Origin: Podarcis pityusensis
Taxonomy: Eukaryota
Assembly: GCA_964106645.2 (NCBI GenBank)
Contig: OZ067038.1
Length of the DNA stretch: 64,000 nt
Strand: one strand, 5' to 3'
The notes under the pieces: generated by a model
Told to the model about the DNA's origin: nothing
What the model saw: the letters and a program-made list of their open reading frames with translations, nothing else
The model's database searches: none
In this document: positions 35,060 to 54,124 of the stretch, one piece after another
Numbering within the stretch: the first letter of the stretch is position 1
Layout of the letters: each line of letters starts with the position of its first letter
Made by a program: the position numbers and the translations under genes

Positions 35060-35149
35060 CAGGTTCAAGCTACACCTCCTCAGCCCATCAAAGTGCCACA
35101 GTTCATCCCTCCTCCCAGACTCACACCTCGTCCAAATTTTCTTCCACAG
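35060..35149 (+). CDS. PHF21A: PHF21A coding exon (Q)[29 protein letters not shown] (90 or 87 nt, NAGNAG acceptor)
   Basis: ttag|cag|GTT tandem acceptor; CAG|gtgagt donor. Confidence 0.95.
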
Positions 35150-45402: not shown

Positions 45403-45463
45403 CGCAAGAAGAGCGCAGTCACATACCTGAACAGCACAATGCATCCTGGGACACGTAAACGAG
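45403..45463 (+). CDS. PHF21A: PHF21A coding exon [20 protein letters not shown](G/A) (61 nt, phase 0/1)
   Basis: tgtaaag|CGC acceptor (AAG type); CGAG|gtaggt donor; carries the first half of the AT-hook. Confidence 0.95.
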
Positions 45464-48291
45464 GTAGGTGTCTCATAATAGCACCTCCCTGTATGTTTAT
45501 TTCCCTTTCTTTTGGACTGAAATAAAACAATATAGAAAATAGTTTTGTGGTACTGAATACACATCGTAGGTATGCTGTAACCCTGGTAGGCAGCTACTCT
45601 ACAGAAGCATCTTTGGTTGGTAGGCTTTGAGGGTAATCTGGAATGAATAAGGATATAAATGGGAGAATTTCCTGTGTGTAAACTTGGCCCAGTAAAGATT
45701 CCCAACCCAGATTAGTAAATGTAACCTGTCATGCAGACTAGAAGGGGGGTGCCAAAGTGGTAACTGAGCTCCCATTCTGAGACTCTTCCTGTGTAGTGAC
45801 TAAGTGCGTTTGGTCCTATGTTAGGACTCACTGTTTATGAAATTATTTATTGTGCTGTTAAGAACATGTTCAGGTTTCTTTGAAAGGCGAGTTACTTGAT
45901 ATTTGATGAAATCGTGTGGCAACCATGGTACTCTTAAAATTATTACAGGGATGCTTGCAAAATTCTTCCCACCCAATTTTCTCCTTAGATTTCAAGGTTC
46001 TGAATTCTTGATCTTGCTTGTGGAATGGCACCAGTAATCTGCCATTTTTCCATTTTTAACATACAGGCTTTGTTTAGACTGCTACACATGCAGTTCGCTA
46101 GTTTTCCATTTGCATACTCCCCCCCCCCCCCACACACTTTACAGGTTACTAACCCATGCCAGCAAAGGCGGACATTGATTAAAATACTAACGAAAAAGGC
46201 AGTAGTAACATGGTCATATCTATTCATGTGCCCTAGTGTGTATCTGTAAACTGTTAAGGGTTAGGAGTAATGTTGCAAATGGAAAACTCTGGCAAACTGC
46301 ACATAAGCCCTGAGATGTATTTTAGAAATTGTCCATGTAAAACTGTAAGGCAGGTAAAGCAGAGCATGGGACAGCCAATCCATGGAACAAGAAAAGAACT
46401 TGGGATATCTATTTTATTCCTTGATCTAAACTGTGCTGCTTCCACTGTGAACAATATATCTAGTATTAAAGGAAAGAGAGCCCAGTTGAAATTGAGATGG
46501 TGTGAACTGTGGAAGGTTTGCTCAAAAACACTTTTCCTTGAGGAGGGAAGGTTTCTGCATTCTCCCTGCATCTTGAACCTTTAAGTGTTGTTTGGCCTCC
46601 AAGAAGCAGATGATGCACAGTTTTTGAAGTTTTGAGATGAAGCCCTCTGCTTCAGTAGGTTGTGACAGCTATCGACATGGTTGAGTTCAAGAGAGGTTAA
46701 GTTAATTCCTAATGCTTTGGGTGACCCTAAGATCAACAGAGAATGTATGTTGATGGCCAGAAATCAGAAAGGTACTATATCATCAATGCTTGTTGTTGCT
46801 AATACATCACCAAGCATGTCTGTTTTGTGTCTGAGACAAGTTACTACTGATCTGCTCTCGTGTAGTGGTTGCTGTGTTCTTAGAGCCAGCCAATTGTACA
46901 GTAGAACTAAGCTTGGCTTTGAGATTAATTTATTTTGACTCTGTTCAGTGCTAAATATCATGAGTGAGCACTGAATGCCCTTTCTGTAATGCTTTCTAAT
47001 GTTTCCTCTGCTCCTGGGCCTCTTGTTTCAAAAACAAATGGCCAGGTCAGAGGACGTAAGTTGTATAATACTTGATATTTCAAATGTTAAAAGATATATG
47101 CACTATGTACCTAGTAGGATGAGTGTGTTCATGCACATGAGTGTTTGGGTGAGTTTTTAGGTAGCTGAGCAGTTTCAGTAGAGTGCATTTGTCTCTTCCT
47201 GTTTAGCCCACTGATTTGAATTTGCTTAAAATGATAGTGCCTGATATTATTATTATTACTAGTCTTTGGCAGCTTTTGGCATTTTGAAAATAAGGTGATG
47301 GTCTCATTGCAGTTTACATTGAGCAGGCTTTACTTTCCCCAAAAATTGCTGCCATAACTGCTCAGTTCAGCTATTAGTGCATTTCCCCAGGAGATCAGAT
47401 GTTCAGAGGAGCCCTTCTTTCCTTGCATAATTTGTTTCTCACCTGAAGCAAAATTGGATGTACTGGGTTTTTTGGCACTGATGTTGGCTTTCTGTCCCTC
47501 AACACACAGAGGGCATTGGCCTTCAGTGCCACTTTCCATCAGAGTTGTTAGGTGCCATTTACTGAAGATAATGATTACTATGCATGTTTAATTTGATCTT
47601 CCTGCCTCTTTTCTCAGTCTCTAGCTTCACTTATTGACTGCTTAAATATCTTTATATATATATATATATTCCTCTCTGAGCATATGCCTCTCATCAATCA
47701 TCAGAGTAGTGGTAATGCAAAAGACAAAGATTGGTGTCTCCTACAGTGTTGTGATTTCACTTGGAATAATAGCACACTTTATCGTGAGTTATATCTTCTA
47801 CAGTCAGCAGGATAGGATTTTAACAACTCTTCATACTTGCAGATTTGCTTTGTTGAGGCTTTCTCCCACCTAGGCTACCATGCAGCTCCTTTTGCTGAGA
47901 GAGATCTCATGGGGTTGCAGGCCGTAATTTTCTCTGGCATTTGTGGAATGTTGTGAGTTTTTCTTAGCACAAAGGTGGTATTTAGATGTAGGTTTCACCT
48001 TAGGCTCACTGAGGGTGATTTACCAATGGTCATAACAATGTGATGGAGATACCATGATAAATTAGAGTGGTAGAAATCATGGCAGCTTTTCTTTGCCAGT
48101 GGAATTTGGGGGTGGTAAGTTAAAAGTTAAAGACATTAGTGTGGTTATAGAGATATATTGGGAGTAGCACTCTTTCTGAAGGCATGTGTTTTCTCTCTTG
48201 TGATACCATCCTTCCTTACACAATTCTCCTTTAAGTGTCTTAAAAATAACTTTACAGTCCTGACTTGGCTTTCTTTCACTCGTGACTATAA

Positions 48292-48298
48292 TACTAAC
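48292..48298 (+). promoter_or_regulatory. Perfect-consensus branch point TACTAAC upstream of the 23-nt microexon
   Basis: TACTAAC followed by an AG-free pyrimidine tract up to the acceptor at 48337-48338. Confidence 0.75.
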
Positions 48299-48338
48299 TT
48301 CTTCTCTGTACTACATCACTTCCTTTTTTTCATGCTAG

Positions 48339-48361
48339 CCAATGAGGAGCACTGGCCAAAG
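48339..48361 (+). CDS. PHF21A: Alternative 23-nt microexon (A)NEEHWPK, neuronal PHF21A isoform, phase 1/0
   Basis: catgctag|CCAATGAGGAGCACTGGCCAAAG|gtatgt; yields ...TRKR-ANEEHWPK-GDIHEDF as in the short mammalian isoform. Confidence 0.92.
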
Positions 48362-48413
48362 GTATGTAAGATTATTTCCCCTCCCCTTTTTGTTCCCTTT
48401 TGTTAATGTGTAG

Positions 48414-48577
48414 GTCGTCCACCTAAATACAACACGGTGCTGGGGTTTGGGGCTCTGACCCCCACATCCCCTCTGTCCAGTCATCCTGACTCCCCTGAAA
48501 ATGAAAAGACAGAGACCACATTTTCTTTCCCCGCAACTGTTCATCCTGTGTCCCTGCCCAGCCCCAGCTCCACAGAC
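48414..48577 (+). CDS. PHF21A: PHF21A canonical AT-hook exon (G)[19 protein letters not shown]...PSPSSTD (164 nt, phase 1/0)
   Basis: gtgtag|GTCGTCCA acceptor; GAC|gtaagt donor; completes the RKRGRPPK AT-hook. Confidence 0.96.
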
Positions 48578-49998
48578 GTAAGTAATTCTTCCTGAGAGGT
48601 TTGCTGTTTGAAGAGACCGTGGAGACTTCAGAATTTGGTTCTTTAGATGCACTGGTATTATGGTAAACTGCAATAATATGACCCCCTTCTTCAGCCCCCT
48701 ACACTTCTACTTGTACCTATTCAACCCCCCCCCCCCAAACTATGGAGTAGTATATATATATCTATATGATATCCACAGGACATGCCAGAATGTTCATATC
48801 CTAGAATTGTAGAGCTAGAAGGGGAAATATTTCAAAGTTCTATAAGCCCTTCCCAGATGCACAGTGATGCAGTGAATTAAAGACAGTGCATATGTGATAT
48901 ATTTCAGCAATCCAGTGGCAGGAGGAGAACAGATCCTGTCACACAGAAGCCTTAGGAACAATTACATATTATTACTGAATCAATAAAGTAAGGAGAAATT
49001 CTTGCTCAAGATAGTTGGACACAGCGTTAGTGGAGTCAGAGTGAGTGCCTTCACTGACACCTGGCAGTTGCTTCTCGTTTATGGATTCTGCATACCTATA
49101 TGGGGGAAAGTTTTCTTTTCTGTGAAAGTATCCTTCTGGTATGTGAGCCCAGTTGCCTATTCTGCCAGTTTAGCACAGGCTGTGGTTGAATTAAAGTTGA
49201 TCTAACCCATAGCTTGATCTGCAGCACTGTCTGTTTTTGGAGAGTGTGGGTGGTATTTTTTTATTACTCAGAAGGGAGGTAAATCCATCCTTCTCATGAT
49301 AGGTGGGTTCGAATTGGAAGTTCTGGACTCACAACCTTGGTCAAGTCTCATCACTTCTCTGTACCTTCGTTTCCTCATAATAAATAGCTCCATGGTTGTA
49401 AGACCCAACTAATGAACACATTTTACACACAATCAGACTTGCATAACTTTTATGTTCTAGTGGGCTGCACTAGATGTTCCTCCAATCTGTTTTTTATGCT
49501 GCTGAGCTAAGAGCCTCTGCATCTCATTCATGAAATATGCAGCTTGAGGATTGCTCTAACTTACATAACTGTATCTGTAGCCTCATTGTTGAAGCAGCCA
49601 AGAATAGCCAAATCAGGAACACCATCAGTATCTTTTCTGCACTGCTGGGTATTGCAAAAGATAAAATCAACAGGCAGCATTCCTATAGGATGCAAGTTCT
49701 GTGTTAAGAGCCATAGTCATACATTCTCTAGGTATTGTATTATTCATGAAATCTCCCAAACTATCAGAAGGCAGTAGTAAAAATTGATCCAAACAAAGAA
49801 GACTTTCCTGCTGATTTAGCATGGCATGCACACATGCACATGAACACATTCTATTTATAACAGGTTTGACAAAGGTTGCTAGATTCTTAAGCACATTTGT
49901 TTTATAAATAAAGCACTAGGACAGTGAGCTCATTGTCATTCCAGTTGATGTCTGTTGCACATTTTTACATAATGTTCTGAGCTTTCGGTAATGATGTA

Positions 49999-50167
49999 CC
50001 GTATTTTTTGCACCATAACACTCACTTTTTTCCTCCTAGAAAGTAAGGGGAAATGTTTGTGCGTGTTATGGAGGGAATGCCTACGGGTGGCATGCCTACG
50101 GATTTTCCTCCTCTAAAAACTACGTGCGTGTTATGGTCGGGTGCGTGTTATAGAGCGAAAAATACGG
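49999..50167. mobile_element. 169-bp Tc1/mariner MITE related to 23917-24649
   Basis: ta|CCGTATTTTT ... AAAAATACGG|ca; shares the aaggggaaatgt.tgtgcgt subterminal block. Confidence 0.85.
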
Positions 50168-50699
50168 CAATTCTGATTAGCCATCAGCCTTCAAGCCTAG
50201 AGTGTTTTGTTAAATATCCATCCACCAAACATGTACACACATCACATGAATGTATTGCTTCCTCCAGAAATTCACCTCCTATTTCACTTCAGTGGTGTGT
50301 GTTTTTCGGAGAATTTATGGTAAATAGGTCTGTTTTCAGTTGTGTCCCTCCACTCACCGAAGACTCCTTAATCCAACATAGGATTCCTTTAATGGAATGG
50401 GGGCAGGCATTGTTTGCTGATTTCCCCCCATCTCTCTGCAGTCCATAGACCTTCCCTGGTCTGCTCCAAAGGATTGTGGAGGTTGATGGGGCAGGTGGCC
50501 CTCAGAAGATAATGAAAACTGCTTCCCTTCCATTCATGGAAACCTCTGCTAGTGCAGAGTACTGCCCATTAATGGAGAGAGACAACTGAGTACAACCTTC
50601 TGATCTTGTTAGCTTCTGAATATCTTTAACTTCCATAATCAGTTACTCAGATTAAGATGCTCATTAGGTTTCAGCTCCACTTCAACAGGCGCTCTAGGG

Positions 50700-50836
50700 C
50701 TAGGATGTGGGATCTGTGGCCTTCCAGATGTTGCTGTACTCAAACTTTCATTAGTCTTGGTTAGCACAGCCAGAGGTCAGGGGATTTTGTAAATTAGTTC
50801 AGCAGTATTTGGAGAGCTACATGCTCTCCACCCCTG
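50700..50836. mobile_element. hAT-like palindromic MITE
   Basis: 8-bp TSD-like ctctaggg / ttctaggg; tccagatgttgctg ... cagcagtatttgga inverted symmetry. Confidence 0.65.
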
Positions 50837-53800
50837 TTCTAGGGAAACCTCGTTGTGTTTGTCCTCCATGCAGTCACAAAATACAAGAAAAAAGTTGGCC
50901 TTTTGAGTTTGGGTAGTCATAACACTTCAAGAGATACATGAAAGTTTAACTCTGTTGAGTGGACAATATGAAACTGGCTGTATTATTATAGATTGAACTA
51001 CTTTAGAACCCAACAATGCTCAAGTCACAGGGGATCCAACCCTGTTATGTTTTGTGAAACTCATCTTAGCTACTGCTACAACTACTACTACTACACTGTA
51101 GAAAGCTACAGAGAGGAGTATGACTGACTTAAAACTGGGTGGGGGGTTGAAGGATAAAATGTGAGGTTTTCATTAAGTCCCCCCCTTCCCCCCATAATTT
51201 GAACATTGGAATCCAGCACTCATTTGATATGTAGAACTTGCAAAATCAAAGCATCTTTACATGCCAAAGTCAGGATAGCACAGTAAGTTTAGGAATTAAT
51301 AGAGAGAGGCTTGGTTTTCAAAGTCAAAGTTTAAGCCTCAGCTAATGTTTGTGGGTAATATCCTCCCACCTGCCCGTGGTTGGTATTCTGGCATCATTTA
51401 ATATGTATTCTTAATAAAGACGGGCACATTAGCATGCTATGTAAGGCAGTAGAAAACATCTGGCATAATTCAAATCCTACCACTGCTCAGTTTGATATGG
51501 AAGATTGAATTACATATTTTAAGGAGGCTGTGACACTTTTATTTCTTTCAAATTTTATCCCTATATTCTGAATTTGAAGGAAGCTTTAGAGATTGGGATT
51601 TGGATGTAGCAATTTTCCAGAGCATTCCTTAGTTGATTGAAATTCATGTATTAAGCCATTTTCTGTTACCTTATTTCTGTTCTTTTTAGCTCTTCTTCTC
51701 TTTCTGCATTTCTGTACAGCGATCTACAAATAAAAATAGTAACTATGAGATGGTAACGGCAGAAGGAAAGAGAGAAAAGGAAACTAAATGGCTTTGCTAA
51801 GAATTTTGCATCCTAAAGTGAAGAGATAAGGAAGGGAAAGTAATGCAAAGAGTCATGCAAAACTGACATGTTCTTGCTATTAAAACTAGTACTGGGGCCT
51901 TTGTTGACATTTTACAGCTGGGGATGGTGTTTTGTGTTAGTCTGGTTTGGTCAAGGTTTTCCATCTCGTCTATCGAAAGGCCAAGTTTACGTAAGATAAA
52001 TCAGAAAAAGTATACCTATTACTGGATATTGCAGTGATGCACCAAGGTTAAAGTTATACTAGGCTTAAAGTGGTGCATTAACTTAATTTTGCAAGCAGTG
52101 CCTTCTACTTCCAAAATATTGAAAAGATGATGGCCCATGAAACACATTTCTTAGGAAAGACTGCAGCTACCTTAAGAGTGAATTTCACCCAGGTGAAATT
52201 ATGATTATGCTCATGCTAAGCATGCCCAAGGCTAGATTCCATAGCCTTTTGCAAACAATAATTTTATTGCACAGTAGATCTTACTCATATTTGCAGAGAA
52301 TCCAGGCAGGCTTTCTCCTCAGTGCTGTTCCCCAGATATCACATTTTGCCAACGTGTAGACCACAGTTCTTTTGCCAATAGAAAGCATTAATTTTATATT
52401 TTATCTCTGGCCCCCGCCTGCCTAACCCATCCCCTTGCTTTCTTGTTTTGATTTGGCGTGTTGCGTGGAATGAGGCTGTACAGATGTCACAGGCACCTAG
52501 AAATGGCCATGACTTCACTGCTCACAATTAGTACAATTTTCTGCCCCTATAGCTGTGCAGATTTTGCTTATTTGCTTAGAGGCTTATCAATCCAGTGTGG
52601 TCATATAGCCATTGAAAATAAAGACATACAATAGCAGCAGCAACCACCACAGCAAATCTCTCTTATCCATCATGGTTAATGATATCAGCTTTTATTCCTT
52701 GTATATGTGTTAGTTTCACTCCTCTCCAGCACTGGAATATTCATATTCGCTATTTGATTTATGTACTCTGTCCCCAAACAAAATAAGCACCTCAGTATAG
52801 TGAGCTCTTAGTGTTGGATTTAAATTATTAGTTGCTTACTACAAAAGTCTCTAATGGAGCAATCCTAACTATAGAAAGCTAGCATAAATAATGCTGGCAT
52901 GTTACAGTGGCAAAAGTTACCCCTATTCCAAACTCAGTTCAGAAGGAATAGGGCACTCTTTGCCAGCTACATTGGCTGGGCTGCTGGGTCACTTGACTCA
53001 GCCAGAAGGTGTTTGGAAGAGGTGTAAGTCTCTCCTTGCTCTGCCACATCTCCAGAATGCCCCCTTCTGGGGGGAACTTGTGCTAGTGTAAGTGATACCG
53101 TCTTAAGATCCACCGGCTGAGCACCCATTGAGATCTGCCATATCCAAATTCTATCATCCCAGTGGATCCTAGGTTTCAATTACACTGCAAGTGACTTACA
53201 ATCTTTTGGTTTTTAACTTTTTTGTAACAAAAAACAGAAGCTAAAGCATTCTGCACTACCAGGGCCACCTGTCCCTCAAGTGACAGCAGTGGATACAGGA
53301 AGACACTCAGACTATGGACCTTTCAGAATGAGTCTCACCCTGCCAAGAGCAGATTGCATGCCATTCACCTGGTCAGAAGATCCACCTGCTAATCCCTCTT
53401 GGCTGGATTAAGACTCATGTCATTGGTCCTCATCCAGTTCATTATCATGACAGGTCACCAATCAGCAGGTCCACTGCCTACCTGCAGAAGATGACATAAG
53501 AGCTGTGTGTCATCAGCATGGTGATGACAGCACACTCTCACACGCTGTCTAATCCCACCCAGCATTAAGTTAAACGTGGGTGACAAGTTCTGCACCTCCT
53601 GGAGAACCGAACCTATTGCGGCACTTTAAAAATGTTTTCCATACAGTGGATCACTGGGACTTTCACCCCACATTTAATTTCACTTACTTGAAAATAAGAT
53701 GGGTGTGATTCTTAACTATATAAATAAGTGATCTGTGCTTTATAGTTTGAAATTGTACTAGAGTAGACATGGTGGCATTTGAAGAAGCTGTGGCCCTTGA

Positions 53801-53968
53801 CGTTCCTTGTGGTTCTTTTCTAATCGTCAGGCACCCTTTGGTAGCTTTCTTTCTGTGTTTCATGAAAAGGATATTATTTTGGGGATTTCATTCACTTAGG
53901 ACTTTACTTTGAACTGGAATTTAGTTTTCAAAGTTTGTAAGTTCCCTTTCCCCCCTCTAATTTTATAG

Positions 53969-54124
53969 GGTGATATCCATGAAGATTTTTGCAGTGTTTG
54001 CAGGAAAAGTGGGCAGTTGCTGATGTGTGACACGTGCTCACGTGTGTATCACTTGGACTGTCTGGACCCACCTCTGAAAACTATTCCCAAGGGCATGTGG
54101 ATCTGTCCCAAATGTCAAGACCAG
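53969..54124 (+). CDS. PHF21A: PHF21A PHD finger exon [52 protein letters not shown] (156 nt)
   Basis: C4HC3 PHD pattern; tttatag|GGT acceptor; CAG|gtattg donor. Confidence 0.98.

Follow-up and report, generated by a model that had tools for sequence, protein, structure and literature searches.

What keeps two neighbouring exons of PHF21A from being joined in one mRNA? The question arises in a 64,000-nt stretch of DNA from the lizard Podarcis pityusensis (contig OZ067038.1 of assembly GCA_964106645.2), called the window below, where a 23-nt microexon and a 164-nt exon that completes an AT-hook are separated by a 52-nt intron. The PHF21A switch itself is already known, and the lizard copy adds little to it; the useful part is a plausible, testable refinement of its mechanism. 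We consider it probable that the lizard pair is orthologous to the known PHF21A pair and that its exons cannot be joined, because the branch point of the AT-hook exon is predicted to overlie the microexon donor, at 7–13 nt from the start of the intron.

An alternative exon pair in lizard PHF21A

Most of a PHF21A gene lies on the + strand within the window. Podarcis muralis PHF21A isoforms align to it exon by exon at 91–100% identity, the AT-hook-exon peptide is the same in Podarcis muralis, Zootoca, and the window copy, and the PHF21A stretch is single-copy in the genome. Together with the PHD exon and Pfam, the isoform mapping confirmed the gene assignment made in an earlier sequence-only reading of this DNA, and re-reading the sequence returned all the exon and intron coordinates, lengths, and phases given there:

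45403..45463, + strand: upstream PHF21A exon (equivalent of mammalian E13), ending in phase 1 and encoding the RKR half of the AT-hook
48339..48361, + strand: microexon (E14-n ortholog), 23 nt, encoding an 8-residue segment
48362..48413, + strand: intron between the two alternative exons, 52 nt, GT-AG
48414..48577, + strand: canonical AT-hook exon (E14-c ortholog), 164 nt, completing the AT-hook and encoding the linker
53969..54124, + strand: PHD-finger exon, the common downstream exon, phase 0

As expected of the E14-n/E14-c pair, the gene is PHF21A with a downstream PHD exon, and exons of 23 and 164 nt in phase 1-0 sit between E13 and that exon. The other nine of the ten introns measured in this gene span 565–5391 nt, against 52 nt for the short one.

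Translation of the joined exons places both the microexon-only and the AT-hook-only joins in frame into the PHD finger. Splicing the microexon to the AT-hook exon leads to a premature stop at 48456, and omitting both exons leads to one at 53971, as anticipated by the claim that including both or neither shifts the frame; retention of the short intron gives an in-frame stop at 48404 in the lizard. The AT-hook (RKR/GRPPK) straddles the upstream exon junction and is lost from the microexon isoform, which has no match to Pfam AT_hook; the canonical Podarcis isoform scores 15.9 bits, just below the cut-off of 17.4. The segment before the PHD exon comprises 55 residues in the AT-hook form and 8 in the microexon form, so the junction-spanning hook and the shortening by 47 aa described earlier both hold.

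The switch as known from other vertebrates

Statements on the literature, here and below, refer to the excerpts consulted of each source. The human pair is listed as mutually exclusive cluster 544, with lengths of 23/164 nt and frame 1-0 (PMC5740500), and the two exons are also called mutually exclusive in PMC11605454. In mouse and human, the microexon form is neuron-specific, has lost DNA binding, and binds H3 13-fold more weakly (PMC11864812). PHF21A is among nine events reported in 2015 as brain-switched in human, mouse, and zebrafish, the long form making up 8% in mouse brain versus 91–96% in liver and kidney, and 20% in human brain versus 78–98% elsewhere (PMC4438066). A human microexon construct with short flanks was included only in the neuroblastoma line among five lines (preprint PMC12637576), and the rat microexon increases upon neuronal differentiation (PMC13388176). 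Phf21a splicing is altered in Srrm4-mutant mice, with the UGC motif required in other Srrm4 targets (PMC3464207), and a review names PHF21A as an SRRM4 target (PMC5891588). By analogy with mammals, the short form is likely to be neuronal in this lizard too.

Splice signals of the microexon

Upstream of the microexon we located three elements:

48292..48298, + strand: branch consensus TACTAAC of the microexon, a perfect match, with the predicted branch A at 48297 (-42)
48299..48332, + strand: microexon pyrimidine tract, within an 81-nt AG-free zone
48333..48335, + strand: predicted SRRM3/4-response element, a UGC at -6 that mouse has at the same position

The TACTAAC motif and the UGC next to the AG thus stand as first described. 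Of 4326 AG sites in the window, only 11 have an exact TACTAAC at -18 to -50, and among the 13 acceptors of this gene a 7/7 branch match is found at the microexon alone. Neighbouring CU-rich tracts had also been read as PTBP1 sites; the pyrimidine tract is there, but PTB-type CU motifs do not exceed background: the 100 nt preceding the microexon hold 7, and the 12 other acceptors have 0–11.

Microexons of the SRRM3/4 type range from 3 to 27 nt. The lizard exon falls within that size, carries the UGC between branch point and AG, and has a distant, strong branch point, so that its predicted architecture matches the SRRM3/4-dependent class described in bioRxiv 10.1101/2024.09.17.613571.

Taxonomic spread and age

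We fetched 528 proteins, 379 of which contained the upstream-exon motif. That motif leads into the AT-hook exon in 196 and into the microexon followed by the PHD exon in 128; a further 28 combine the microexon with a skipped PHD exon, 19 read through microexon, intron, and AT-hook exon, one is an odd pigeon model, and seven are of other kinds. The frameshifted microexon-to-AT-hook join occurs in none of the 176 microexon-bearing proteins. Microexon forms were seen in lizards, snakes, turtles, birds, monotremes, marsupials, and human, and the isoform is annotated in the lacertids Podarcis, Lacerta, and Zootoca. Here and in the sets below, the records are largely annotation models, and a few are transcript assemblies.

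Beyond amniotes, 120 matches to a Xenopus region excluding the alternative exons divide into 69 with the microexon, 48 with the AT-hook exon, and 3 others. Among 145 new cluster representatives, 15 carry the upstream motif and 4 of these an 8-residue microexon-type segment, all four being teleosts (milkfish, a pipefish, grass carp, and a toadfish). Lamprey and Lingula, with a single representative each, have the AT-hook form only; coelacanth, sturgeon, caecilian, axolotl, lamprey, and brachiopod show AT-hook or PHD-skipping forms only, among the matches listed or as single representatives. No cartilaginous fish appeared among the matches.

Because microexon isoforms occur in frogs and teleosts, and zebrafish switching has been published, the switch predates amniotes and dates to at least the bony vertebrates. 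An origin at least in the amniote ancestor, as first proposed, is right as a minimum but understates the age. The published zebrafish amplicons differ by 200 nt, not 141 (PMC4438066), so that table does not show equal exon sizes.

Adenosine placement in the short intron

The sequence-only reading had attributed exclusivity to the 52-nt length of the intron, taken to be too short for the spliceosome since the amniote ancestor. The lizard geometry agrees with this at first sight: a branch point at least 18 nt from the AG would be at most 34 nt from the donor, under the limit of ~50 nt, and even a test intron of 70 nt was left unspliced in vitro (PMC6692369). The length is not constant, however: the lizard has 52 nt, mouse has 69 nt by a count made by eye, and bats, cats, and hyena have 73 nt, a value deduced from 20 read-through models that carry 24 codons. 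Human introns of 43–65 nt, including one of 56 nt, can also be spliced (bioRxiv 10.1101/784868), so a length of 52 nt alone is no proof of a block. What has been kept instead is a set of early adenosines followed by an adenosine-free tract:

48368, 48369, and 48374, + strand: candidate branch adenosines of the AT-hook exon (+7, +8, and +13; predicted), overlapping the microexon donor region
48375..48404, + strand: adenosine-free pyrimidine tract of 30 nt, spanning the zone where a branch point of the AT-hook exon would usually lie

Lizard intron adenosines fall at +3, +7, +8, +10, and +13, and the next comes only at +44. The mouse intron, examined by eye, has the same five and then A only within its last 6 nt. 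The AT-hook acceptor is alone among the 13 acceptors of the gene in having no A at -39 to -10, and residues that require an A at +13 are kept in 20 of 20 read-through models. All intron adenosines except that of the final AG lie within 45 nt of the donor; the predicted donor-to-branch distance in the lizard is therefore below ~50 nt, the range in which steric exclusion of neighbouring exons is expected. Two further lizard adenosines, at +44 and +45 (-9 and -8), have a fair branch context but lie merely 8–9 nt before the AG; they count against an overlap of donor and branch site.

Judged from the sequences compared, the conserved feature is adenosine placement, not intron length, and on this basis the branch point of the AT-hook exon is predicted at +13. 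Branch-point position explains exclusivity better than length does, and length as the sole cause now seems improbable to us: a steric block between the exons remains likely, the 52-nt length as its cause does not, and that length is not ancestral. Selection on a retained-intron product was considered as well and rejected, since a retained intron keeps the frame in bats and cats (73 nt), brings an in-frame stop in the lizard (52 nt), and shifts the frame in mouse (69 nt).

For comparison with human lariat data, we assumed an hg19/hg38 offset of 21,551 at this position, which would place +13 at hg19 45,967,614. The human microexon is at hg38 chr11:45946075-45946098 (preprint PMC12637576), and the rows listed from a human lariat mapping include three minus-strand branch points in hg19 chr11:45,967,600-699, at 620, 619, and 614 (scores 2, 4, and 6; PMC5959240). 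Positions 45,967,620, 619, and 614 fit +7, +8, and +13 of the human intron under the assumed offset, and their 0/1/6 spacing matches A7, A8, and A13 whatever the offset. Among the rows listed in the same source, we found no lariat entries starting 459674, 459675, or 459677.

A probable branch site on top of a donor

Spliceosome assembly requires ~50 nt between donor and branch point, and U2 pairs with the branch region as a 14-nt helix, upstream of the branch (PMC6692369). Taken together, U2 at +7 to +13 would cover the microexon donor, and joining of the microexon to the AT-hook exon would be blocked by this overlap. By default, the microexon would be skipped, with U2 at +7 to +13 and 45463 spliced to 48414. 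Neuronal cells would differ in that SRRM3/4 turns on the microexon acceptor and U1 at 48361 masks the canonical branch site, so that splicing runs from 45463 to 48339 and from 48361 to 53969. Erroneous forms (both exons, neither, or the intron retained) would carry premature stops and go to nonsense-mediated decay as a backup.

A bolder version holds that nucleotides +1 to +13 of the short intron double as microexon donor and as the only branch site of the AT-hook exon, that U1 and U2 compete for them, and that this repressor-free SRRM3/4 toggle has persisted since bony vertebrates despite drift in intron length. It could be right, though we lean slightly against it.

We propose that the overlap forbids removal of the short intron but would not, on its own, prevent a composite exon with the intron retained. 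The overlap alone cannot set which donor follows the microexon acceptor, so the earlier label of a "hard-wired" switch is too strong: it suits the ban on joining the exons, not the selection of the donor used after the microexon. When a human minigene with its flanking introns shortened was expressed in neurons, most products contained both exons, which its authors attributed to missing distal intron sequence (PMC12234916). Donor choice after the microexon thus likely needs more than the overlap. If those products kept the short intron, they would agree with the overlap, as well as with the gene models of bats and cats; if the exons were truly joined, they would contradict it. Bowtie2 is an unspliced aligner. 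The minigene reads were mapped with it, and the text consulted does not state the fate of the short intron (PMC12234916). A further point against the overlap comes from OGDH, where a wider donor-to-branch distance was not always enough to free the donor (PMC7969005).

The minigene authors' own proposal is that distal intronic elements and neuronal RNA-binding proteins actively repress the AT-hook exon, local geometry being secondary, because both exons were let in once the interiors of the long introns had been removed (PMC12234916). Against this, mouse neurons whose microexon was deleted express the canonical form, with its exon included, at a normal level (PMC11605454), so the AT-hook exon is not silenced on its own. 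One of the mouse guides cuts, by eye, at the microexon donor; the cut may have altered the +7 to +13 region, and the deletion is for that reason not a clean test. We regard active silencing as an unlikely account of the exclusivity; distal elements may nonetheless influence donor choice, a role compatible with the overlap.

Frequent double splicing with destruction of the frameshifted mRNA by nonsense-mediated decay, exclusivity being merely apparent, is very unlikely in our view. In its favour, the double-inclusion stop at 48456 sits well before later junctions, 60% of human mutually exclusive clusters have frame-incompatible lengths (PMC5740500), and the minigene co-inclusion could be a double-spliced product (PMC12234916). 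Against it, the 176 microexon-bearing proteins include no such join, which is weak evidence, as frameshifted products are seldom annotated.

Overlap of the microexon donor with the branch site of the AT-hook exon would account for three observations: the exons exclude each other, neurons lacking the microexon default to the canonical form, and some bat and cat gene models retain the intron. The published accounts, in the parts consulted, give no reason for the exclusivity, and one contains the unexplained minigene co-inclusion (PMC12234916). In the literature searched, with most subscription papers outside its scope, we found no description of such an overlap in PHF21A. Steric interference has been predicted for 57 of 629 (9%) human mutually exclusive clusters, and PHF21A may be among those 57 (PMC5740500); it is absent from one supplement of PMC7969005. 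PHF21A has been linked to intellectual disability, and the overlap would point to a few intronic nucleotides at which human variants might impair it: if the bolder version is true, variants at +1 to +13 of the intron would affect both isoforms of a neurodevelopmental disease gene.

Comparison with known systems

The closest counterpart is the mammalian PHF21A/BHC80 E14-n/E14-c pair (PMC11864812, PMC11605454, PMC4438066, PMC5740500), which shares gene, exon order, lengths of 23/164 nt, and phases 1-0. The lizard microexon peptide is identical to human E14-n, and the two systems are alike in the 141-nt/47-aa difference and in an AT-hook split at the upstream junction; the lizard also shares the UGC at -6 with mouse. 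They differ in the intervening intron (52 nt in the lizard versus 69 in mouse and 73 in bats and cats) and in the microexon branch motif, a perfect TACTAAC in the lizard and a one-mismatch motif in mouse.

The local geometry resembles that of Tpm1 exons 2/3 and OGDH exons 4a/4b, where the downstream branch point also lies near the upstream donor and is followed by a long pyrimidine tract (PMC7969005, PMC6692369). The donor-to-branch distance, predicted at 7–13 nt for PHF21A, is 41 nt in Tpm1 and 25–41 nt in OGDH, and only in PHF21A would the two sites overlap. Unlike the Tpm1 and OGDH pairs, the PHF21A exons are unrelated in sequence and length, and the upstream one is a microexon.

With neural microexons regulated by SRRM3/4 (PMC3464207; bioRxiv 10.1101/2024.09.17.613571), the lizard exon shares its short length, a strong distant branch point, a pyrimidine tract, a UGC, and a long AG-free zone. 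Unlike the cassette microexons of that class, the 23-nt PHF21A exon does not preserve the frame; its use takes the place of a longer exon and costs the protein a motif.

Splice sites and gene models around the microexon and AT-hook exon

A cryptic acceptor is present inside the AT-hook exon (window 48454–48481), with its AG just before 48481 and, in the window sequence, pyrimidines and a branch-like motif at −23. The microexon donor is 119 nt away, and joining the two is therefore sterically allowed; a reading-frame check of this junction places a stop at 48487.

Gene models from bats, cats, and hyena run the microexon, the 73-nt intron, and the AT-hook exon together in frame, encoding GRPPK without RKR before it, and may reflect either real retention or an annotation artefact. 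Snake microexons carry two altered residues (HW to QC), both near-invariant in other tetrapods.

PHF21A proteins fetched for comparison
Fused bat, cat, and hyena models: P0017, P0185, P0187, P0190, P0192, P0228–P0242
Snake proteins with the HW-to-QC microexon: P0061, P0070, P0103, P0111, P0114, P0120

Other variable splicing in PHF21A

Tandem acceptors spaced 3 nt apart at window positions 35060–35063 agree with a one-residue difference between annotated isoforms. The PHD exon (window 53969–54124) is 156 nt long and phase 0/0. Many frogs, along with coelacanth and teleosts, have annotated isoforms that leave this exon out, and its skipping is possibly a second switch, taking out the reader domain.

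TACTAAC motifs upstream of the microexon

Two further perfect TACTAAC motifs, 38 nt apart, occur at window 46147–46191 in the 2.9-kb intron upstream of the microexon, which holds three of the six plus-strand copies in the whole window. These may be QKI/SF1 sites, a lead taken from PMC13004596, and both motifs are candidates for the distal elements absent from the human minigene (PMC12234916), in which most products in neurons included both exons.
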